A stretch of 64,000 nucleotides of DNA, taken from NCBI GenBank assembly GCA_028534125.1, contig CM052816.1, forward strand, positions 81,222,001 through 81,286,000. The letters run 5' to 3'. Positions 18,961 through 53,241 of this stretch are shown piece after piece. The notes below the pieces were generated by a model. That model was not told where the DNA came from and searched no databases. It was given only the letters and a program-made list of their open reading frames with translations. Each line of letters opens with the position of its first letter. The stretch's first letter is position 1. This DNA comes from Lama glama. Taxonomy: Eukaryota. The translations under genes were made by a program, and so were the position numbers.

Positions 18961-19139
18961 GCAGCAAAAAAGAGACAGAAGGTTGCAAATTAATAGGTAG
19001 AAGACATAAGGGTGTTCCTTTTACTGCTCGTTCAACTTTTCTTTAGGCTTGAAAATTTTCAGAATAGAGTATGTGGAGAGAAAAAATCAAGTTCAAGGTC
19101 ACTGGGATGGAACACAGACATTCTTCAAGTAGTTACTAG

Positions 19140-20290
19140 ATGTAAGAGTGAGAGGGGCCACTCCCATTGATGGCCCCATGGGTCTAACACACTTAGAAGC
19201 TCCTCCCACAAACGCTCTCTAGGCTCCTCCAAGAGACTGGAGACATCTTAAAATGTGTTCCTTTGTTTATAGGTGCTCCTAGAACAGGCCTTGTAACCCT
19301 AACAGGAAAAAGTTGAGATCTAATCCTGGTTATGGAACTGGAGGCAGTAGGGGGTGTGGTGGCCCACCTCTGGGGGCAATAGAGGTCCAGGGAAATTTGG
19401 AGCCCAAATGCCATCTCCTTTCCCAACCAGTACCCTTAGAGATGTCACAGGACGGAGCATTTAAGTGGTGCGACAGCTATGCAGGCCTCACAACAAACCC
19501 TAAGCTTGTCCCAGAACTGCTCTACGACCACAAGTGAGGGGCCTCTTCAAAGCTGCCACAGAGGCTTTCCAGCTCCTTGTGTCTTATTCACAGCTTATAC
19601 CTTTTCTTTCCCTAGAACCTTCTCAGGTCTGTCGAAAGTGAGGTGTCTGCAATATCTTTAGAGTCACCACTAGCCATGATGAGGTGCCATTTGGCCTATC
19701 CAAGTCTTGCCATCCTGGGCAGCCCTCGGTGCTACCACACTGATTGGTCTACGTGGTTGTGGCACCACAGGGTACCCCATTGCCCCCAAATTGACATTAG
19801 CCCATCCTCTCCAAATCTCAAGTCACAGTTCTGAGGGTCCATTTCCTGGGGCCACTTCTGGTACTTATTACTGTAGCAGTCCCAATGCCAACAGGAAGCA
19901 ATGGCACACTCACACTATGACTTGATGAGAGTTTAATAGGGGCCATTTACAGATACGAGTAGAGTATACGAAAACCACAGGGACAGCTAACACATTAGGC
20001 TCAAAGGGTTGGGTAAGAGTGAGTACTGTAAATCAGGAGAGAATTGGAGAGAAGTCCTCTTAAGAAGCCACCTCTAGTCACAGCCAGCCCAAGGTGACCT
20101 TGAAGGGAGGGAGGGAGCCAGAGGAATAAATATCTGACCTCTGTTCCTCCATCTCTCCCATTACCTACTGGGAATCTGTCCTGGCCAAACCCAGTCCGGA
20201 GCCAGAAATCAGGGGAGCCGGCTGCCATGTCCATCCAGTCAACAACCAGGCCAGAGGGTGGAGTGTGGACCTGGGTGAAACCCGAAGACA
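19140..20290 (-). mobile_element. Old ERVL-type internal fragment plus LTR33-like LTR
   Basis: gccacttctggtact...ctgtagcagtcc junction; gagagtttaatagggg..tttacaga. Confidence 0.4.
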
Positions 20291-20714
20291 GCCCACGCAC
20301 AGCGCAGAGCCTCAGGGTTCCAATTTCATCATACCCATTCAAGAGTTGGGAGGAGGGAAGAGAAAGAAGCCTCATTTTACCTAATTCTCTTCTCCTTCCT
20401 AGTATCTTCATTGCTAGTTAAGTTCTTCCTGCACAATCACAAGGCCCATGCTACCTGAAGTTGGTGGCCAAAAGGAAATCCTAGTCACTGTACCAAGGAA
20501 TAATTCAACCTACCTCTACCTCAGTTCTGGCTACTGGCAAAATCTAACTGGGGCAAACCAACACCAACTTTCTTAGAGTTTAGCTTTGATTAAAGGGTTC
20601 AGCAAAGTCACCCAACCCTGGCAGACATGATAAAAGTGCAGCTATGGACAACAGCCCCTTCTGCTGCTGGGAATGTGAGGAAATAGTTTTAAGAAACTCC
20701 GAACAAAGAACAAA

Positions 20715-20795
20715 GGGTAGGGGTGAAGTTCAGTGATAGAGCATGTGCTTGGTGTGTACAAGGTCCTATTCCCAGTACCTCCATTAAGGGGGAAA
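20715..20795 (+). mobile_element. Degenerate Vic-1-like SINE
   Basis: ttcagtgatagagcatgtgctt...aaggtcct...cccagtacctccatt; flanking aaactccgaacaa/aaactccaaacaa. Confidence 0.75.
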
Positions 20796-21339
20796 AAACT
20801 CCAAACAAGATGTGCTGGGTCAGGAGCTAATTCTAGCTCCTATCAGGGTGAAGGTGAATTCAACAGTCTATTGCTAAATCTGTGAACCAGGAATCTTGCT
20901 GTTGGCAAGGTCTATATATACCACAGGAACAGAGTGAGGCAAACACAGTCTAGGGTTTTGGAATTAGCCAGATGTGGATTCCAATTGTTTCTGCCACTTA
21001 CTGTCACTTTGACAAAATCAGCTGTTTACTCCAGAAACTTCAGTTTCCACCTGTAAAATGTACTTCCTCATGAAGTGATACTAAATGGGAAAGTAAATAA
21101 AATTCCTAGTATCTGCCACCATCCACACTTCCCCACCTTCACACTTAACAAACGGGGGTTATTATCCCACTGGGTAGTTACAGTAAGGGGTGGTTTAAAT
21201 AAACTTACAGAACAGTGCTGCTGCCTTTCCTAAACAAGGGAGGGTCTAACCCAAATTCTTTCTAATCCTTACAGGAAAGAGTTGTAAGCAGTCTTACACC
21301 CCAACTCCCCCCACCCCCTAGATTGCTAGGGTTGAAAAG

Positions 21340-21730
21340 GTTGCGGGTGTCAGCGGGGATGGCGGCGGGGCGGGGGCGGGTGGGAGTGAAGGCTGTGGGG
21401 GAGGCCCCGGCGGGGGGGCCTGGGGGAGGGGCGGCCCAGGACCGGGGTCCAGCGGGGGTCTGGGCAGCGGCGGGGAACCGCACGCGCGCACCGGGCGCTT
21501 GGTGAGCCTGTCGGCCTGGGGGTGTAGAGCGCGAGGGCAGCAGCTGGGCCAGGAGTTCAACCACCGGCCTGTGTTGAGCCAAGTACCCTTGAGCGACGGA
21601 CGCTTCAAGTTCCGCATCCACCGCAAGGTGCGGAGCTGGGGAAGCGGAACTGAAACGTGAAGGGTAGTGGAAGGGGACCAGAGGGAGATGGGGGAGGACA
21701 GCCAGGGTAGCCCACATCACCGGGTACCGA
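21340..21730. promoter_or_regulatory. Orphan CpG island with G-quadruplex-prone tracts (NEURL4-derived)
   Basis: Dense CpG, GC boxes (GGGGCGGGG) and multiple G3-G7 runs at 21355-21480. Confidence 0.6.
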
Positions 21731-21935
21731 GAGAGAACTGACAGGACACCAGCTGATGGGCAGGAGGGGAGCATGAAGCTGAAACACTCAGGCTCATGAA
21801 GAGACAAGGGAGAGCCTAAGTTTCCCTCAAGATCCAGGAGCAGGGAAGGGACACGGGGCTCACCCACTGCCATGACTAGGAAACAGACATCCTGGGACAA
21901 TTTCGGGGGGTGGGGGAGAAAAAAAGAAAGAAACG
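21345..21935 (+). pseudogene. NEURL4: NEURL4 5' fragment retrocopy: 5'UTR, exon 1 (ATG 21359, exon end 21627), retained intron-1 portion, A-rich tail
   Basis: Frame 21322-21627 reads ...[63 protein letters not shown] versus recalled NEURL4 [64 protein letters not shown] (NHR1 domain). ATG-GCG-GCG-GGG (MAAG) is out of frame by a 5-nt duplication. Flanked by AAAGGTTGC direct repeats (21336-21344, 21936-21944). Confidence 0.88.
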
Positions 21936-24404
21936 AAAGGTTGCAAAACCCAAACTACAATGTATTTTGTAATTTCTTTTAAAGCTAACACATCCATCAA
22001 CCTCCTGGAGGCAATTTTCCAATGGAAGTTGCTTGCTGACGACGCTGCTCTGAATACCTCTTTACAGCAAGTGAGTTTGCTTTCTACTTAAAAATTCAAG
22101 AACCATTGCACAGGACTCCAGTGTGTTGGAAATGCTCTCAAACGTTTCTAAGAGCTTTCTCTGCCTACCAGTTAAGGACGCTGTAGTGAGCAAGATATAT
22201 TTCTCCATATTTGGGGGGTCATATATCAAAAAAAGATGTATTTATGAGTGCTTGGATACCAAAGGACCCTTGTTTCAGAAACAAGATTTTTAAGGAAAAC
22301 CATAGGGCTTCTGAAACTATTTTTTGATTAATAATTTAAAGGGTTAGTCTTCAAATTTCAACACCAGGAGGTACTTTTGATCTAGATTGAGAGCGGAAAT
22401 TCTTATAAATTCCTCAAAATCCTCAGATTGCTGCCAAATGCCTTCTCACTACCCCTCTCATCCTTTTGTATCACTCAAGTGTGAGAAAATGAAAAAGTCT
22501 TCTTTTCATCTTCCAAAATCAATAGTGAATAGAGGCAACAGAACTCATGCCTCAAAAGCAGTAAACTGGAGAGGCTCGTAACTGGCTCATGTACCAAGCT
22601 TGACTGCAAACAGGAGCCAAGCACAAAGACAGACAAGATGGACAAGACTGTGGTCTGAACTTGAGATGCTCAGCTGTGTGTGAGGGGAAGGAGGGGAGTG
22701 GTTTGAGAACCAAAATAATCAGATTCATGTTAAAATAGGGTACAGCAGGAAATAATTTTCTATGAAAGTATTAAAAGTACTCACGACTCAGGTGGAACTT
22801 AGGAAAGTCACGAGAAAGTGACTGAACTTGATGCTGACACAAAAGATCAGTTTAAATACGTGCTGAACACAGCCAACTCTCCGTCACTCAGATGTCGCAG
22901 TTTCACACACTCCATCCATATCCCACATCCTTACACAGCCACCATTCCATTTCTTTTTCGTTCACAACCAAGCTGCTCAGCCTCCAACTCGTCACTCAAC
23001 CAGCCTCTGCCTTGCCCACTCTTGTCAACACCCATTACCTACAAACCACCACATCATCAGAAATGTCAGTGTTGTAAAAGCCAAGGAAGAAGTGAAGAAC
23101 TGTGTCAGGCTGAAGACTGAAGAGACGTAACAACCAAAAGAATTGGAAGCTTTTGCTATAAAGACATTACTGCAACAACTGGTAAACTTTGAATGGGATC
23201 TCTGGGTATATGGAATTCTCTGTACTATTCTGTTTGGAAAATAAAGCCAGAGAAGGGGCTAGTATAAGCCTGGGGCTTAATTAGAATAAGGCCTAAATGG
23301 AATTCCACCTCACTTTCCAAAACACGAGCTACAATACACAGTTTTAATTAAGTTCTGGCTTGAATGGCAGAAGCCCCTTGTATACAGCATTTTTGTTATC
23401 AAGACAGGTTAAAGTATTCAACTGCTGAGATTCAGGACAAGTGTTTTATTTTCTAGCAGTTAGAGAAAAGAAGTGGTTTAAATCATTCCCAAGTTAATAA
23501 GTTATCTAGCAGAAAAATTAACTATTAAACTCTCTATTAAGAGCCAAAGAGTAAAATAAGAGGGGCATTTCACTTCAGGTAGAAACAGTATGTCATTGTT
23601 AGCCCAGAACTAAAATAGCTGTGGAAAGAGAGGGCTCGGAAGGTCTGAACTCTAATGAATTTATATGAAGTGGGCACGGCAGGAGAGGGGGTGCCCTGCG
23701 TAGCGAGAAATTTTACACAGACAGCCGTTGTCGTCAATAAACTGTTATATAATAAATAATTCTACTTTTTTTTTAATGTTTCATGCTTTTCACACTCCTT
23801 TTCTATCCCATAACTCCTTTGAGTGTAAAGTCAGTGACTAACTGTGTAAGTCCCAAGTACTATTTTATTCCTTTTTACTGGATTTTTGAGTCAGCATGTT
23901 TTACTAAAATTTACAGTTAAAATTAAGTGGAACAAAATAAGAGTCATAAGTAACCTTTCATGGATCTCTCTAACCCTGTGTTAAGTTTCCCTAAATGGAA
24001 ATTTAAACGAGAGATCTCAATATGTAACTAGGCAAAAGTACTAACCAAGAAGGGAAAAACAGACACTTCTTTATAGAGTCTGAAATACCCAAAGGTGTCC
24101 ATTATGCAGCTAATTATAACAAGGAATAATCAGACCACAAAGCACTCACACAGGTAAAGAAAAAAAGAGACCATATAGACTTCGTATTTGCACTTTTCCA
24201 TTTGGATCGAGTAGACGGAAAAAATGGACTCACAACATCCAGTCTCAGAGGTCCTCAGACTAAACCCTCTAAGGCTAATTCACATTCCAAAGCATTCACA
24301 CAGAAAGGGCTCTTGTTTGTTAATAAAACCCATTTAACAGATAACTTAGCCACTCATCTTCAGGTTTGTGAAACTGGGATGACACATAGGGTACATTTCT
24401 TGTT

Positions 24405-24410
24405 TTTATT
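24405..24410 (-). terminator. Candidate distal polyadenylation signal AATAAA of SUB1
   Basis: tttatt on + strand; downstream on the minus strand: tgtaccctatgtgtc. Confidence 0.6.
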
Positions 24411-27130
24411 TCAACATTTAAAATATTCACAGATGCAGTATTATATTCATTGACATCTCCATGGAAGATGTACCAAACAAAGCAGACAGGTATTCCACAA
24501 TTACAGAATTACATATTTGTTACTATGTGAATGTTTACCCCTAGAGTTTATCTGGTAAAACACCACTTGGAAAAAAAAATAGGCAAAAACGAGTGTTTCA
24601 CTGGATTAATTTCCATAAAAAGTGAGTTGCAAAGAATTTCAGGAGAGATATTTAAATATCAGCACTTTTCTTTAATTTCAAACTTTGATAGTCCTCTTCT
24701 AACATACAACCACCAGGAACACTCAAATAATTAATACTCAATTCTTTCTTTTCCCCTCAATAGCCAAGCCAGGATGTACACACCTTTTTCCCTATGCCTT
24801 TTTTTCTAAACACATTATGTAAAATAGTTTGACCATCATAGCATCTTGACTAGCTAATGAGGTAGGAGTATTCTTCAAAAGAAGTTCTTAAGCATTTATG
24901 AAGCAAAACAAGAGAGAATAATAAAATTAGTTTTTCTTATTTAGTGGTTGTTCTTTAAATAAAATGCCAAGATTATTTTAAAAGACATTTAAAAGACAAA
25001 GAGGAAAAACCTATCAGAAAGGCCCTGCTACTGAGCACATTCAGGGCTGGTGTGAAATTCATTTTGGCATTACAAGGTAAGAAACCACTGCCTCAAAATG
25101 CCAGGCTTTCTTCCTGGAAGAAATCTTGCAAAAGTTTAAACAGAAAACAGAAGTACTCTTATCTTTTCTTTCCAGTACAAGTTATTTTTGTCTCTTCTTT
25201 TAATCCAGTTCTCATCCTTTTCTACACACAAAAAAGATTAATTTTTGTAAATTGCACATCCAATAATGTATTGAAATGAATTTAGCAGTAGTAACCTTAC
25301 CAAAATCTGCCAGAGAAACACTCCTTATGTGGAAGTTTTAAGGACATAAATGCAACAGCTAGAAAATGCCTAGGTAACAGATTTCAGCACCATCTCTGTA
25401 TTAGCAGATTGCTTCAAAATGCATAGACCCACCTATTTCATATAAACCTAGGAAATTACCCATTAATCCCTCTTCATCTATACCAAAATCAAAGTTCTGT
25501 GTTCTAACTACCCTTTCTGTATATATAACAAGGATTACTTTACAAATCTACCCAATTCAGCTAATTGGGACATACGTATGTTCCCTAATAAGGGGAAAGT
25601 TTTCAATCAAGTATGATTTGTCTAAAATACATATTCTGAATACTTTGGTACCTATTATTTGATGAAGGTTAAAATACCAGGAAAGATTTCTTTATTTCCC
25701 CAATTATGTACATATTAGGATTACTACTAAAAAAAAAGAAACTTAAAAAAAATCTTAAAAATGTAAAAGAAGTACTGAGAAAAGCTGCCAGAAAAAAAAA
25801 AAAAACTGATAACTCTATGTGGCCTGGCAGATGGTTTTGTAATCAAGTCCTTGACAATTCTACTATATAATGTTTTAGACGTAGTAATCAAACTTCGTGT
25901 AATAGTGCAACTCTCTGATATGGCAGTAACCATTTGAAATTAGCTACCAAAATAATTTGTCAACAAGAATTTTTTTTACATGTCTTTAAACCTTTCTTTT
26001 TACTATCCTATCTAGAATTGTGTCTTATCAACGTGATCAAAATATCATGTGTTATCATTTAGTGTGAAGAGAATTCCTTTCCTCTTCATTGCCACCTTCT
26101 TTAATTTCATAGTTCCCTTACATTCTTTTCCTAAGGCACACCATGCCCTATTTATTGCTGCAAAGCCCCTGAAATCTGTGCCTCAATCTGTGTCTGCCTC
26201 ATCACTATGGTTCAATGAAAACCACTTCAGAGTGCCTGCTACAACTTAGTAACATTAAGTCTAGAATGCCATTGTCCAGTAGATTAACTGCCAAAGAACC
26301 AAGTCTACTGAAGCAAAGGCCAAAAAACACAAGTATGTGCTCTATATGCTCCTTCCCCTAAAAAGTGACCACACTATCTACCATGACAATAAAGCTGACT
26401 GATCTCTCTGGCTATATGTAATCCATACTCAACGCTACAAAATAAAATGTTATGCCAGTAAGCTGTCACTATTTTTATTAAATCCTAGGCTAATTTAACA
26501 GTATCTGATTTTATAGACATCATCCCATGGTGAATATGCTTAATAAGTGAAAGCAAATCAGACATCTAAGTCATTATTTTCTGCAGACTAAGCAGTAAGA
26601 TAACAACTACACAGAACACTACAGGTAATGACGTACACCTACTTGCTCAGAGTTTTCATACAAGCCATGTTGTTTATCAAACTATATGTCCTAATATTTA
26701 ATACAGTAGAGTTAGTGATTGCAGTTTTCATATATTTTAATTACAAGTACCTTATTGAAATAACTAACATTCTGACAGTTTCAGACTTTCCAAATTAGCA
26801 TAATATATTCAAGAAATATAGCAAAAAGTGAAACAAAAACTGAATATGACAAGGTAAGTTATTAAAAGAAAAATGAAGTAAAGAAAAAAAGGGAAAAGCA
26901 GAAATATCATTGGCATGGGGAAAAAAATAAAAAGTCCAGACATTTGGTTAGAAGAAAACAGATCAACAATTACACAAATCAAAAGCTTATAAATTCAATG
27001 CAATGCAAATCCTTTTGAATGTAAAAGCTGAGTTGAAACTACAAGGTCTATAAACTGTTATTTTTGGCCTTAACAGTACCAATTCTTCTGATCAAAGAAG
27101 GCCACAACAGTTAGGATTGTATTACTTGAT

Positions 27131-27136
27131 TTTATT
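27131..27136 (-). terminator. Candidate proximal polyadenylation signal AATAAA of SUB1
   Basis: ~230 nt after the stop; TGTA immediately upstream, tgttgtgg downstream. Confidence 0.55.
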
Positions 27137-27363: not shown

Positions 27364-27443
27364 TTACAGTTTCCTTACTGCATCATCAATGTCAGAAATC
27401 TGTTCCTTCAGCTGGCTCCACTGCTCAGGATTTAAAGAAATAC
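27364..27443 (-). CDS. SUB1: SUB1 last exon coding part; [26 protein letters not shown]
   Basis: Acceptor ttttttag|GT; TAA at 27366-27364; 80 nt. Confidence 0.97.
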
Positions 27444-30400
27444 CTAAAAAAAAGTTTTAAAAATCAAAAATTGAAAACTTAAGTTTTCCTGAGGATTTGT
27501 TAATACTTCCAACTAAAATACTGTTTTATCAAAACTGCCATTTTGAATGGCACAATGGTACATTAAGAATCAAATCTCTTCCGTTTGTTAATTACATATT
27601 GCTCACAATGACCTCAGCAGGTCAATCTTATATCCAGTTTTACTCTCAACACTGCAACCTGCACACAATGCCTATTACACTCAGTGAGAACACATGACGA
27701 TCTGAAGATTCATCTCACAAGTGCTGGCAAACTAGTAGGCTAAGTGGCCAGGCCCAGACTTGGTATCTGACATCCCATTTCTACAACCAGTTAGTTGGTT
27801 CAAACATTAGTGTGCTCAAAATTTCCACAGGAACTCAGCATAATGACTCCCCTGAGTTCTTCCAGGAGCATTCATTTCACTTTGGAAAAATCAGAAGCAT
27901 GATCCAAACAGGACTCGTCAGAATGTTCATACTGGTTAAGAGCGCACTTTGCAGTCATGCAGTCAGGGTTCAAATCCCATTCGCACTATCGCTAACTATG
28001 GCCTTTAAAAAATTACAGTACCTCTAAGCCTCAGTTTCCTCACCAGTAAAATGATTCTTGTAACTCAAAAGGTTGTTGTGAGTAATTAGCTAATGTGGAT
28101 AAAAACTCAGCATATCACCCAGCACATAAACATTTAAAACATTAGCTAATGATGTGTTGTTCCTATTTAAGATGTTAATGAATGAACAGAAAGTACTCTG
28201 TACTTCAAACGGTCCAATGTTCTAATCCTGGACTCATATAAACAAAGGAACTAGAACTGGAAGAACTAATGTATTTCTCAGGAAACTGCTGGGAGGATAT
28301 GAAATTGAGAGGAAGGAGGAGAATGCACTGGGATAACACTTAGGAAGGGCTTTAAAGTTAATCAAATCATTTTAGTAAGCAAACAAGTGGTATTTTTTAA
28401 AAAGACATTCAGGCAAAGTAGAAACAAGTAAGGAAGCATTTTTCCACTAGCTAAGGATCAACCTAAAGTGGCTAACTACACAAATATATGAGTTTCTGTT
28501 GGTACACAAATGTTCTCCAGCTATTTGGTGAAAGAATAAAGTATGCTTCTGCGATGCTGACATGCTTGGGACTGGATGAAGCACAATGGAAGGATGAAGA
28601 GCCACTTAAAAGATACCACCCTAAAGAATATCCTTTTGGAGATGCTCCAAAAGGAAACACTGTAAACCAGGATTTTCCGTTCCCAATTCTATACCATCCC
28701 AGTCCCCCCACTCTACTTCAGAACTGATGTGATCTTTTTAAAGGTACATTCAAATAAATTAACAGTCCAGTGAAGTGGTTTTAGTGGTATTACTGAGGGG
28801 TGGGGATGCAGTGGGTATTTCAACAGCTATACTGAAGACACCTCATTACAATAACTAAAGTGTCATGTCCAAAAAGGCTACAGAAGAGAAGCAATCAACT
28901 CAGTGAGGATCTTCCATGCCCTATGCACTGCCAACATTATTTCAATTTCAAGTAAAGTCCAAACAACTTCAAGCTTAAATAATTTTAAGTTTAGTCCCAA
29001 TATTAGGACTAATTCAGGAAATTAAATCTCACCTTTTCTTCCTGGTTTCATTTCACCTTCCGGATCCATCCAGTATTCTCTAATATCAATTAAGACTTTC
29101 CCTTTAAAGTCCCGAACACTGACATACCTCATTTTCCCAATCTGTAAAAAGAAACAAAAACATAAAAAGCTGTTCAACAGTGATGTCCATATTTATATCC
29201 ACACTTGCTGAAAGCTTACTCTTTTAATAGCAAAAATAATTGCTATTCTTAATATCAAAACTACACCAAAGGAATTATCATTGTTAAAAAGAAATCTTTC
29301 TAAAAAGGATGAAACTAAACAAAGCACATCTCACGTTTTCAATCATTTTTTGCATTAAAAGAACCATTAGTAAAACAGTATAACCACTATGGAAAACAGA
29401 ATGGAGGTCCCTCAAAAAAAATTGAAATAAAACATATGATCCAGCAATGATCTAATAGCCCCACTTCTGGGTATATATATCCAAAAGAAATGAAAGCGGG
29501 GTCTTGAAGAGGTATTTATTCACACACCCATGTTCACAGCGCCATTACTCCAACAGTCAGGAGATGCAAGCAACCCAAATGTTCATCATCAAATGAACAG
29601 ACAGACAAAAATGTGGCACATATGTACAACAGAGCATTATTCAGCTTTAAAAAAAAGAAGGAAATTCTATCACATGCTACAATATGAATGAACCTTGAGG
29701 ATATTACATGCTAAGTGAAATAAGCCATCCAGATATACATTGGATGATTCCACTTATATAAGGTACTTAAGAGTAGTCAGATTCAGAGGCAGACAGAGTG
29801 GTTACCAGGGACTGGAGAGAGGGAGAACGGGAGAGTTGTTATGCAACAGTTTCACAAGATGAAAAAGTTCTGGAGAGCTGTTTCACAACAATGAGAACAT
29901 ACTTAATACTACTGTATGCTTAAAAATGGTTAAGGTGGTAAATTGTATGTTAAGTGTTTATTATCACAATAAAAATCACTGGAAAACAAAATCTTGTACA
30001 AACTATAACTGAAAGAAATCTCAAGACTTAGCTACATTGGTTTAGCAACCATTCTAAGTAAAAGAATTCAGAGGTCCAGTCAATGATAACATGAGACAGC
30101 TTTTCCTTTTAGACCTTCATTTCAAGTAACATCTTTAATACTATCTACTTAGCCTCAAACTGAGAACTTAAAATTCCACAGAAAACTATTTTTCTTCCAC
30201 TGCTGCTCAACACAAACTACAGAGTTGCACAGGGAAGGAAAAGGCTTTACTCAACAGTGTCTGTAGGCACTTTCCAGGATGTCATGCTGCTACAGTGTTC
30301 AGTTCAGCACTTAAACCAAGAAATCATGCTTTCTAATCAAAACCTCTAATACCCATCTTTTACTCATTTTAAACCTACTCTTCAATCTTACTTATTTAAA

Positions 30401-31662: not shown

Positions 31663-34600
31663 AGCAGAAGCAGAATAATTATATCTCTACTGCAATGTTT
31701 GCCCATAGTCCTGAGAAATCTGATGCAGAAAAACAGGGATACAACTTTAAAATCTCACTGGAAAAAAGAGTTCAAAATCAAGACTGAAAGCAACCTATTT
31801 TTTAAAAGAGACAGTACATTTTAAGTATATTAATGGCATTTTACCAGTCTTCAATCAGTAACAACGAATACTCAGTTATTTTCTGTAAAGAGCACAGTAC
31901 AGTAAACACAACAAACGGTTAGTGGGCTACTTTTACTACGCTTGTCCCCCAGAAACTTCTCACAAACTTCCTCATCCACAATTTCTACAAGGTGTGTATA
32001 AATGTCTTTGTTTGCTACCGATGAACTTAGTAGAAGCATTTTCTTCCTTACAAACATGACTGATCATCCACATATTTCAAGCTTAGGGAATTTACAATCT
32101 AAAGTTCCTAGTCACGTTTCAAATAACTTGTGTTCAATTACACTAAGTAAGAAATTATTCAAACTCGGAAAAGAGTATATAGGTCAATAAACTGACACAC
32201 TAAAATCTGCCAACAATGCTTCAGAGAACACCAGCACTAAACAGCTGTAGGGGTAGGAGAAAGGGAAAGCCTGGGGACACAGACTAACGTTGCTCTACCA
32301 CAATCTGAACTTTCACTGTACACTAAAACTAACTGTGCATTTTGTATACTATCCCTTAATATACCTAGCGTTCACTTTAGCATAGAAAGAAAGCTTTAAA
32401 GCAAATCTCCAAATAAAGATAGGCCATACAGAAAACTGCACCATTTTTATTCCACGACTTTACAATCTCCAAGCCCAAGGTAGCAAATCCACAGTATGCA
32501 CATTCATTCCTGAGGCTAAGCAATGGAGGCATTAAAGGGAAAAGAATTAGAAGGATACTTTGCTCCAACATCAGGAATAAGGCAAAGATGTTTGCTCCCA
32601 ACATGTCACTTCAGTATTTTAGTGGAAATACTAGCAAAAAAGCAAGCAAAGAATTAAAAGGATGATGTAAAACTCAACAGATAAAATCATCAACACAGAA
32701 AATTCTAAGAAGTCATAAATTGCAATATTTTTTCAATCCATGTCCTAGAGTAATAGAAAAATAAGCAAATGGGACCTAATTAAACTTAAAAGTTTCTGCA
32801 CAGCAAAGGAAACCATAAACAAGACAAAAAGACAACATACAGAATGGTAGAAAATATTTGCAAATGATGTGACCAACAAGGGATTAATTTCCAAAATATA
32901 CAAACAGCTCACAGAGCTCAACATCAAAAAAACAAAAAACCAAAAAAACACAACACCACAATCAAAAAATGGGCAGAAGATCTAAACAGACATTACTCCA
33001 AAGACACAAAACGGCCAATAGGCACATGAAAAGATGTTCAACATCGCTAATTATTACAGAAGTGCAAATCAAAACTACAATGAGGTATCATCTCACACCA
33101 GTCAGAATGGCCATTATCAAAAAGTCCACAAATAATAAATGCTGGAGAGGCTGTGGAGAAAAGGGAACCCTCCTACACTGATGATGGGAATGTCAACTGG
33201 TGCAGCCACTATGGAAAACAGTACGGAGGTTCCTCAAAAAACTAATAGAATTGCCATACGATCCAGCAATCCCACGATCCAGCAATCCCACTCCTGGGCA
33301 TATAGCTGGAGAAGACTTTTTGAATCAGAGTTTTAGAATGAGAAAAGATACACGCACCCCAATGTTCACAGCAACACTATTTACAATAGCCAAGACATAG
33401 AAGCAACCTAAATATTCCATCAACAGATAAACGGGTAAATATGTGGTACACGTACACACACATACATACATACACATGCACACGCACATGCGCACACACA
33501 CGCACACACACAATGGAATATTACTCAGCCATAAGAAAGAATGAATGAATGCCATTTGCAGCAACATGGATGGACCTAGAGATATCATACCAAGTGAAGA
33601 AAGTCCGAAAGAGAAAGACAAATATACATCACTTACATGTGGAATCTAAAATATGATATAAATAAACTTAATTTAAAAAAAAAAAGACTCAGAGACATAG
33701 AAAACAAACTTATGGTTACCAAGTAAGCAGGGAGGGGGGGAGGAATAAATTAGGACCTTAGGATTATCATATACACACTACTATATATAGAATAAGATAA
33801 AACAAGGACCTACTGTATAGCACAGGGAATTATATTCAATATCTTGTAATAACCTACAATAGAAAAGAATCTGAAAAAGAACAGATATACATATACAAGA
33901 ACTGAATCACTCTGCTGTACACCTGAAACTAACACAACACTGTAAATTATACTTCAATTTAAAATAAATAAATAAACAAACAAAAATAAATGAATGAACG
34001 GAGAAAGATACTGTATTCACAAACAGGAACTTTTAATACTGTCAAGTTGCCAATTCTCCCCAATCTGAATCAAAATCCCAGTAGGCTTTCTGGTAAAAAT
34101 TGACAAGCTAATCATAAAATGTGTATGAAAATACAAAAGACATAGAATAGCAAAAATAATTATGAACTTGAAGAATAATGTTAAAGGACTTACACTACCA
34201 GATTTCAAGACTCACCATAAAAGCACACACAGTAATTAAGAGAGTGTGGTACTGGAGTAAAGTAACAGGGGGAGAGGGTGATAGCTCAATGGTAGAGCAC
34301 GTGCCTAGCATGAACGAAGTCCTGAGTTCATTCCCCAGTACCTCGATTTTAAAAATAAACTAAATAAAAAATACCTTAAAAGATAGACATACAGATCAAT
34401 GGAACAGAACAGAGTGTAGCAATAAATACATATTTTATATGTTTACTGATTTTCTTTTTAAGATCCAACATGATTCAATGGGAAAAGAATAGTCTTCAAC
34501 AAATGGTAACGGTACAACTGGATTATCCATATAGAGGTGAAAAATTAGTCTCAACCCTTATTTCACACTATACACAAACTAATTCCACATGGATTAGCAA

Positions 34601-52740: not shown

Positions 52741-53241
52741 TTAGTGGGTTGAGTTGTGTCCCCTCAAAAGATAAGTTCAAGGCCTAACCCCCAGTATCTG
52801 TGAATGTGCCAATTGGAAATAGGATCTTTGCACATGTAATCAAGTTAAGATAAGATCCTTCTCAACTAGGGTGAGCTGTAAATCCAATGACTGGTGCCTT
52901 ATAAGAGAAAGGAGAAGGAGATTTGAATATAGAGACATGGAGAAGAAAGCCTTGTGACAACAGAGGCAGAGATTGGAATAAAGCATTTACAAGTATAAAT
53001 AAATAATAAATAAATAAATAAATAAATAAATAAAACCACCAAGGATTGCTGGAAGTCCCCAGAAGCTGGAAGAGGCAAGGTAAGTTTCTTCTCTGAAGCC
53101 TTCAGAGGTAGCATGGCCCTGCCAGCTCTTTGACTTTGGATTTGGGGCCTGTAGTGCCTAGAACCATGAGAGAATAAATGTCTGTTGTTTTAAGCCACCC
53201 TGCTTATGTAATTTGCTTCGGCAGCCCTAGGACACTAAAGG
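52741..53241 (+). mobile_element. MaLR LTR (MLT1B/C-like) with (TAAA)n, inside a MIR
   Basis: gtgggttgagttgtgtcccctcaaaagata ... agaataaatgtctgttgttttaagccac...gcagccctagga. Confidence 0.8.

Follow-up and report, generated by a model that had tools for sequence, protein, structure and literature searches.

The insert and its features

We analysed a window of 64 000 nucleotides from Lama glama (G000:C1:81222001-81286000); coordinates without a prefix are those of this window. On its plus strand, downstream of the SUB1 gene, the window contains an insert of 591 bp (21345-21935) that has similarity to the 5′ part of another gene, NEURL4, hereafter the parent. In a sequence-only reading of this DNA, made earlier, the segment was described as ~590 bp long and GC-rich, starting ~14 nt before an ATG, ending in an A-rich tail and flanked by a perfect 9-bp direct repeat; it was interpreted as a retrocopy of unspliced, cap-proximal NEURL4 RNA made by L1 (LINE-1). 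The described structure was found again in full. The ATG occupies 21359-21361, 14 nt past the left repeat, the core of the tail (21917-21935, AGAAAAAAAGAAAGAAACG) has 14 A in 19 nt and directly adjoins the right repeat, and the GC content of the insert, 0.74 in 21345-21627 and 0.59 in 21628-21913, stands against 0.44 and 0.40 in the two 1-kb flanks. The parts of the insert, with the repeats that frame it, are as follows.

21336-21344, no strand: left target-site duplication AAAGGTTGC, an exact match to 21936-21944, adjoining the first base of the insert
21345, plus strand: extra G at the 5′ junction, aligned to C in the parent
21346-21358, plus strand: 13 nt derived from the 5′ untranslated region (5′UTR) of NEURL4, 12 of 13 identical to parent L002:1501-1513
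21359-21627, plus strand: frameshifted coding sequence of NEURL4 exon 1, identical to the parent at 233 of 263 aligned bases, with 25 gap columns
21628-21913, plus strand: initial ~294 nt of NEURL4 intron 1, from the GT of the 5′ splice site onward, 255 of 284 bases identical to parent L002:1796-2089 (Kimura two-parameter distance, K2P, of 0.11)
21914-21935, plus strand: A-rich tail GGGAGAAAAAAAGAAAGAAACG, 14 A in 22 nt; in the parent this place is taken by a different sequence that is not A-rich
21936-21944, no strand: right target-site duplication AAAGGTTGC, exact

The exon-intron boundary reads AAG/GTGCGG (21625-21633), as had been reported. The peptide quoted in the sequence-only reading is present in the frame of 21361, and the homologous frame, 112 amino acids from stop to stop, indeed contains no Met.

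Identity of the parent gene

When the insert was searched against the whole 2.35-Gb assembly, the only other genomic match was at C24:7202051-7202635, with 84% identity over positions 2-566 of the 591-nt query. This is the colinear match over 5′UTR, exon 1 and intron 1 that had been predicted, and it is on a contig (C24) separate from that of the copy (C1). The parent locus carries twelve pieces of NHR domains (PF07177), all on the same strand, within C24:7202196-7211686; the remaining NHR matches in the genome fall into four other loci with one or two domains apiece. NEURL4 is the only gene known to have six NHR domains.

Exon 1 of the parent comprises 94 codons (L002:1514-1795). Its peptide matches a camelid neuralized-like protein 4 at 99% identity and the NEURL4 proteins of cattle, bats, horse and seal at 96-98%, which bears out the proposed assignment. 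The continuation VNSWSG, given in the sequence-only reading, does occur in named NEURL4 proteins, which read VNSWSGSIEIG after ...RIDRK; at that very point the parent locus has GT. The exon encoding VNSWSG, exon 2, begins in the parent ~890 bp after exon 1 and is missing from the copy. The sequence after AAG, described earlier as intron-like, matches the start of the parental intron, while the 5′UTR part and exon 1 combined have 245 of 276 aligned bases identical between copy and parent. As judged from these matches, the parent is NEURL4.

Two observations concern NEURL4 sequences of other sources. A camelid NEURL4 protein (P0002, 1873 amino acids) has a GPS2-type domain (PF15991) beside the NHR domains and exceeds other NEURL4 proteins in length by ~300 amino acids; the gene model appears to have been fused with that of a neighbouring gene. 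Also, in assembled public runs of other organisms we saw open frames (P0115 and P0121) leading from the NEURL4 Met through the exon-1 splice donor into intron 1. The source of these frames could be either genomic contigs or intron-retaining transcripts; if they are transcripts, unspliced 5′ NEURL4 RNA exists today.

Boundaries and mechanism of insertion

The alignment with the parent begins with GGTGTCAGC, 13 nt ahead of the ATG; the insert contains no upstream promoter DNA. No similarity to the parent was found upstream of GGTGTCAGC or downstream of the tail, so that the homology stops at the direct repeats, and in the genome search each 400-nt flank matched itself alone. With single-copy flanks the insert is not a segmental duplication, an outcome that the sequence-only reading had named as one to be checked.

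A 9-bp repeat is by itself unremarkable, as chance alone would give ~1.5 exact 9-mer pairs in the 901 nt examined; two other repeats, a 9-mer and a 10-mer in G-rich runs, were indeed seen there. The probability that a repeat falls by chance exactly at both ends of the homology is a different matter: it is roughly 4e-6 to 1e-4, depending on whether 1 to 25 placements are allowed. The tail was also considered as diverged parental sequence. By eye ~12 of its 22 bases match the parent, in comparison with 89-90% elsewhere in the insert, and this explanation was rejected; we read the tail as a degraded poly(A), whose first 5 bases may be parental.

Hallmarks of L1 retrocopies are listed in the parts of two reviews that deal with them (Casola & Betran 2017, PMC5470649; Kazazian 2014, PMC4151081). 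Those seen here are a target-site duplication (exact, its 9 bp falling within 5-20 bp), a 3′ A-rich tail absent at the source locus, a 5′ end next to the start codon that excludes promoter DNA, and a location on another contig. Parental intron sequence is colinear and contiguous with the adjoining exon 1. The colinear intron match, the bounded homology, the duplication and the tail support the interpretation proposed earlier: the insert is very probably an L1-type target-primed retrocopy of a short, unspliced, 5′-complete NEURL4 RNA. We infer an RNA intermediate, with L1 as the agent and the cap site as the start.

The insertion could have proceeded as follows. A LINE-1-type endonuclease/reverse transcriptase would nick the target at ...TTGA/AAAGGTTGC..., and target-primed reverse transcription would then copy the short NEURL4 RNA. 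Beginning at the transcription start or close to it, 13 nt ahead of the ATG, this template would span exon 1 and, with no splicing, the first ~294-306 nt of intron 1; it would carry or acquire an A tail. The product would be a 591-bp semi-processed, 3′-truncated retropseudogene with a 9-bp target-site duplication.

Several observations weigh against this interpretation. The target reads ...GGGTTGA/AAAGGTTGC/AAAACCC...; its bottom strand would be cut as CTTT/TCAA if the duplication has 9 bp, or as TTTT/CAA if it has 10 bp, and it is one mismatch off the L1 endonuclease consensus TTTT/AA. The tail, with 14 A in 19-22 nt, is short and has interruptions, as is expected for an old copy. That the RNA started next to the cap is deduced from the position and from one extra G. 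Finally, none of 16 hexamers regarded as poly(A) signals (AATAAA included) occurs 10-40 nt upstream of the 3′ end, either in the copy or in the parent.

As for the extra G, the cap is the usual explanation when full-length retrocopies begin with an untemplated G. The G at 21345 is compatible with such a cap-related base, a single base being weak evidence. A few untemplated nucleotides at 5′ ends are mentioned for retroposons of small nucleolar RNAs (snoRNAs) in the part of the study that describes these ends (Weber 2006, PMC1687206).

Origin of the RNA 3′ end

The hexamers nearest to the 3′ end are GGGGCT, ~58 nt upstream in both copy and parent, and AAGAAA, ~120 nt upstream in the parent; AATAAA is absent from both strands of the insert. 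As there is no hexamer in range, ordinary cleavage and polyadenylation at this 3′ end is unsupported; the end does not lie 10-30 nt past an intronic poly(A) signal. A weak, unrecognised cleavage site is one remaining route, and a possible one.

With somewhat less than an even chance, in our estimate, the insert is an L1 retrocopy of an RNA that had not undergone cleavage and polyadenylation at a poly(A) site. The lack of a signal hexamer within 10-40 nt of the 3′ end is in favour of this alternative. Also, in the relevant part of the snoRNA study, tails of intron-bearing retroposons are ascribed to non-canonical adenylation, and template-switch chimeras are cited (Weber 2006, PMC1687206). Three routes could have led to such a copy: (a) reverse transcription starts on the poly(A) of an L1, a short interspersed element (SINE) or an mRNA and immediately switches to the 3′ end of a NEURL4 RNA that had been terminated prematurely; (b) a surveillance (TRAMP-like) polymerase oligoadenylates such a NEURL4 RNA; (c) a T-rich primer anneals to an internal A-tract of the intron.

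Route (c) could make use of an A9 tract (GAGGAAAAAAAAAC) present in the parent ~50 nt beyond the end of homology. Still, the copy lacks the ~47 nt that separate this tract from the end of homology, and these bases are ancestral, being present in the translation P0121 of the NEURL4 intron of another organism; thus, route (c) needs an extra deletion of ~47 nt. It counts against route (a) that the NEURL4 part passes into the tail with no L1 or SINE sequence in between. The insert does not have the structure of a template-switch chimera of the U6-L1 type: positions 2-566 of the query are all NEURL4 and the remaining 25 nt are tail. The observations do not set routes (a) and (b) apart.

Decay, coding fate and age

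Frames of the copy were disrupted by indels. The frame of the ATG itself stops after 49 codons, and exon 1 differs from that of the parent by insertions of 5 bp and 1 bp, by two gaps that remove 2 + 14 bases, and by a further deletion of 3 bp. We compared the copy, the parent and an outgroup, P0121 (the open frame of another organism described above, from NEURL4 exon 1 into intron 1), codon by codon:

exon 1, 87 codons: changed on the lineage of the copy 21, of the parent 1; outgroup only 2; all three differ 0
intron 1, 93 codons: changed on the lineage of the copy 4, of the parent 4; outgroup only 33; all three differ 7

Such a pattern is expected for a neutral copy of a constrained exon together with a neutral intron, and it shows that the retroposition is much younger than the split from the P0121 outgroup.

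An intact reading frame under purifying selection, which would characterize a functional retrogene, is not seen in the insert. The frame is broken by indels and the copy only ever contained 94 of the ~1560 codons of NEURL4; we characterized it, therefore, as a dead pseudogene, with a coding sequence that was dead on arrival and frameshifted since. A search of the protein database with the 112-amino acid frame of the copy found no orthologous retrocopy: its 16 matches, all with ≤73% identity and all with the NHR family, were parental NEURL4 exon-1 frames. As frames of this kind are rarely called as genes, absence of an orthologous copy among proteins says little.

The age of the copy is, as a rough inference, 15-50 million years. 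If the intron K2P of 0.11 is split equally over the two lineages, roughly 25-50 million years follow from mammalian rates of 1-2.2e-9 per site per year; the ratio to the outgroup branch suggests an age rather less than that.

Changes between weak (A or T) and strong (G or C) bases were counted as well. Raw counts of weak-to-strong versus strong-to-weak differences are 11 versus 11 in exon 1, on 72 weak and 204 strong sites, and 19 versus 6 in the intron, where the GC content is 0.585 in the copy (21628-21913) and 0.539 in the parent (L002:1796-2089). When changes were polarised by the outgroup peptide, the exon on the lineage of the copy had 10 strong-to-weak versus 6 weak-to-strong changes, and those in the intron were too few. 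We make no claim of GC-biased substitution after polarisation.

On the minus strand a stop-free frame of 230 amino acids (21262-21954) runs antisense across the whole insert; most likely, it is a by-product of the purine-rich and GC-rich plus strand.

The CpG-rich block

The 5′ block of the insert (21345-21627, 283 bp, GC 0.74) contains 27 CpGs, with a CpG observed/expected ratio of 0.75, in comparison with 0.04 and 0.28 in the flanks. It has, thus, the sequence properties of a CpG island by the usual criteria: at least 200 bp, GC of at least 0.5 and observed/expected of at least 0.6. In the copy 22 of the 34 parental CpGs are kept and 4 have turned into TG or CA. Transitions were found at 5 of 74 CpG sites and at 12 of 202 other sites; these counts reject a 3-fold or larger excess of CpG transitions (p = 0.009) and a 10-fold one (p = 1e-12). 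The GC content of the block has not been lowered.

Methylated CpGs mutate about ten times faster than other sites, the excess being lower in very GC-rich DNA. Given this expectation, the lack of an excess of CpG transitions makes it probable that germline methylation has been absent from the block ever since it arrived, a conclusion drawn from small numbers. One may propose, tentatively and with some doubt, that the transcribed half of the NEURL4 CpG island was moved into AT-rich, CpG-poor DNA and has stayed hypomethylated there for tens of millions of years. If true, this would be a natural experiment in which the CpG-island state is autonomous to ~280 bp of sequence.

A further step would be to see in the insert more than a dead pseudogene, i.e. 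an unmethylated CpG-island fragment that could act as an orphan promoter or another regulatory element beside SUB1, facing the 3′ end of this gene. The retained CpG-island properties and the lack of a transition excess agree with this, and CpG islands are reported at many promoters of new retrocopies, with ~3% of promoters being parental, in the part of a survey that treats promoter origin (Carelli 2016, PMC4772013). However, the copied sequence lies all downstream of the start site, with the upstream promoter excluded; the CpG counts are small, and the ~10-fold expectation is lower in very GC-rich DNA. In addition, hypomethylation of dense CpG DNA can be intrinsic and free of function. We consider such a regulatory role unlikely.

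In this block, a 5-bp insertion (GGCGG, with ambiguous placement in a G-rich run) at 21364-21380 creates GGGGCGGGGGCGGG, where the parent has GGCGGGGTCGGG. GGGGCGGGGGCGGG resembles two adjoining GC boxes, a motif of the Sp1 type.

Unlikely alternatives: DNA-level event and assembly chimera

Could the NEURL4 sequence have arrived without an RNA? A genomic promoter-proximal fragment of NEURL4 of ~570 bp, captured at a double-strand break or by another DNA mechanism, would retain its intron, as a DNA copy does, and the insert has no poly(A) signal. Still, the fragment starts 13 nt before the ATG and excludes the upstream promoter DNA, the A-rich tail is foreign to the parent, and the 9-bp duplication brackets the insert at a TTGA/AAAG site; break-repair capture does not as a rule yield target-site duplications next to an A tail. 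A DNA-level event is, thus, very unlikely.

Even less probable, to the point of being nearly dismissed, is an assembly chimera in which a NEURL4-like block was mis-joined downstream of SUB1: the assembly does comprise >1 million contigs, but a mis-join would produce neither the tail nor the perfect duplication at the joints, and the block, differing from the real NEURL4 locus by ~11% and by indels, is a separate genomic sequence. Sequencing runs are relevant here too. We found that 14 DNA runs, with 5 organism labels and from 6 studies, contain 0.93-0.97 of the 31-mers sampled from the insert and its flanks (1591 nt); 1 of the 14 is a possible source of the assembly and 13 are not so marked. 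The fact that these runs carry the sampled words indicates that the copy-specific sequence is real and common to close relatives. The 1591-nt stretch takes in both junctions; an estimated ~7 of 176 sampled words cross a junction and the best non-source run (X2, 0.97) misses ~5 words, which is suggestive rather than proof. An intermediate share (~0.6), corresponding to a close relative with an empty site, appeared in none of the listed runs, which is not evidence of absence of such a relative. Among the RNA runs, X15-X17 contain 0.27-0.32 of the sampled words, and X18, an RNA run by guess only, contains 0.22; since one 500-nt flank accounts for 31% of the stretch and the insert for 37%, these shares are assignable to neither.

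Genomic context: SUB1

The sequence-only reading placed the insert downstream of SUB1, which our analysis confirmed. Two exons of this gene were identified:

29031-29144, minus strand: SUB1 exon with the PC4 domain (PF02229, 56.8 bits, E-value 4.1e-12)
27367-27456, minus strand: open frame, up to its stop, that holds the last coding exon of SUB1/PC4, whose end is near 27367

The PC4-domain exon was the sole genome match among 18 candidates scored, and the last coding exon was identified by its motifs. The insert is located ~5.4 kb beyond the SUB1 stop codon and is antisense to SUB1. Minus-strand AATAAA hexamers below the stop codon are at 27131, 26474, 26151, 25691, 24405, 23864 and 23445, and there is none between 23445 and the insert. 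As the last of them before the insert is at 23445, the insert is probably outside the SUB1 transcript, as far as such signals can predict its end.

Beside the insertion site, at 21951-21972 of the minus strand, AATACA is followed by a GT-rich stretch, TTGTAGTTTGGGTTTTG. Together they resemble a weak poly(A) site on the SUB1 strand, possibly by chance. In the window as a whole, the two strands together have 161 AATAAA hexamers, where shuffles preserving dinucleotides have a mean of 80 (0 of 100 shuffles reached 161), with tandem runs near 53005-53034 and 33963-33990; this excess is likely to come from A-rich repeats and microsatellites.

Known relatives and significance

The insert belongs to a known, rare kind, the intron-retaining, 3′-truncated L1 retrocopies that have already been described. 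Semi-processed retropseudogenes are exemplified, in the parts of the sources devoted to them, by a 3′-truncated TMF1 insertion in CYBB and by rodent preproinsulin I (Kazazian 2014, PMC4151081; GENCODE, PMC3491395). The GENCODE text gives eight partially processed pseudogenes in human (PMC3491395). Like those semi-processed copies, as they are outlined there, the insert is of the L1 type, derives from an intron-holding transcript, is 5′-complete and 3′-truncated in an intron, and has an A tail, a target-site duplication and a location away from the parent. The TMF1 copy, in the same outline, ended after an intronic AGUAAA and has eight spliced exons, whereas the NEURL4 copy has no hexamer in range and no splice and contains exon 1 and the start of intron 1 only.

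The duplication, the remnant of poly(A), the dispersed site and decay by frameshift are shared with classical processed pseudogenes, as characterized in the corresponding part of a review (Casola & Betran 2017, PMC5470649). In the classical form given there a copy is intronless, 3′-complete and often 5′-truncated; the NEURL4 copy, in contrast, is unspliced, 5′-complete and 3′-truncated. Introns were not removed from it: ~294 nt of intron 1 remain, together with the 5′ splice site. As the start of intron 1 is kept and exon 2 is absent, we classified the copy as semi-processed (unspliced) rather than classical.

There is also a likeness to snoRNA retroposons of types 2 and 3, which, in the description of these types, are made by L1, carry the intron of a host gene and have a tail often lacking a canonical signal (Weber 2006, PMC1687206). 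Unlike in the retroposons described there, the 5′ end of the NEURL4 copy adjoins a start codon and not the end of a snoRNA. A snoRNA or another RNA family as cargo was considered and rejected: there were 0 Rfam matches in 19000-24500 at gathering thresholds.

Retrocopies that inherit a promoter, as presented in one part of the survey of them, similarly bring parental CpG-rich 5′ sequence to a new site (Carelli 2016, PMC4772013). Those retrocopies, by the same account, arise from an upstream alternative start, so that they include a downstream promoter, and are defined by expression, whereas the NEURL4 copy holds sequence downstream of the presumed start only and is known from sequence. In our search of the literature, no paper was found that joins a retrocopy with intronic polyadenylation, and NEURL4 and pseudogene occurred together in no title or abstract.

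Current understanding is unchanged by this insert; it is a clean, well-bounded example of a rare form of retrocopy, unspliced, 5′-complete and ending in the first intron. Copies of this form tend to escape pipelines that search by spliced mRNA or protein; that intron-containing retrocopies may be overlooked is said in the review passage on their detection (Casola & Betran 2017, PMC5470649). As a presence/absence character with a clear duplication, the insert could serve as a phylogenetic marker in the lineage of its host. Should methylation data confirm the apparent lack of CpG decay, it would bear on the self-maintenance of CpG islands. If the insert did arise as a retrocopy, it fossilises a short promoter-proximal NEURL4 transcript and indicates that the L1 machinery of the germline had access to such RNAs.

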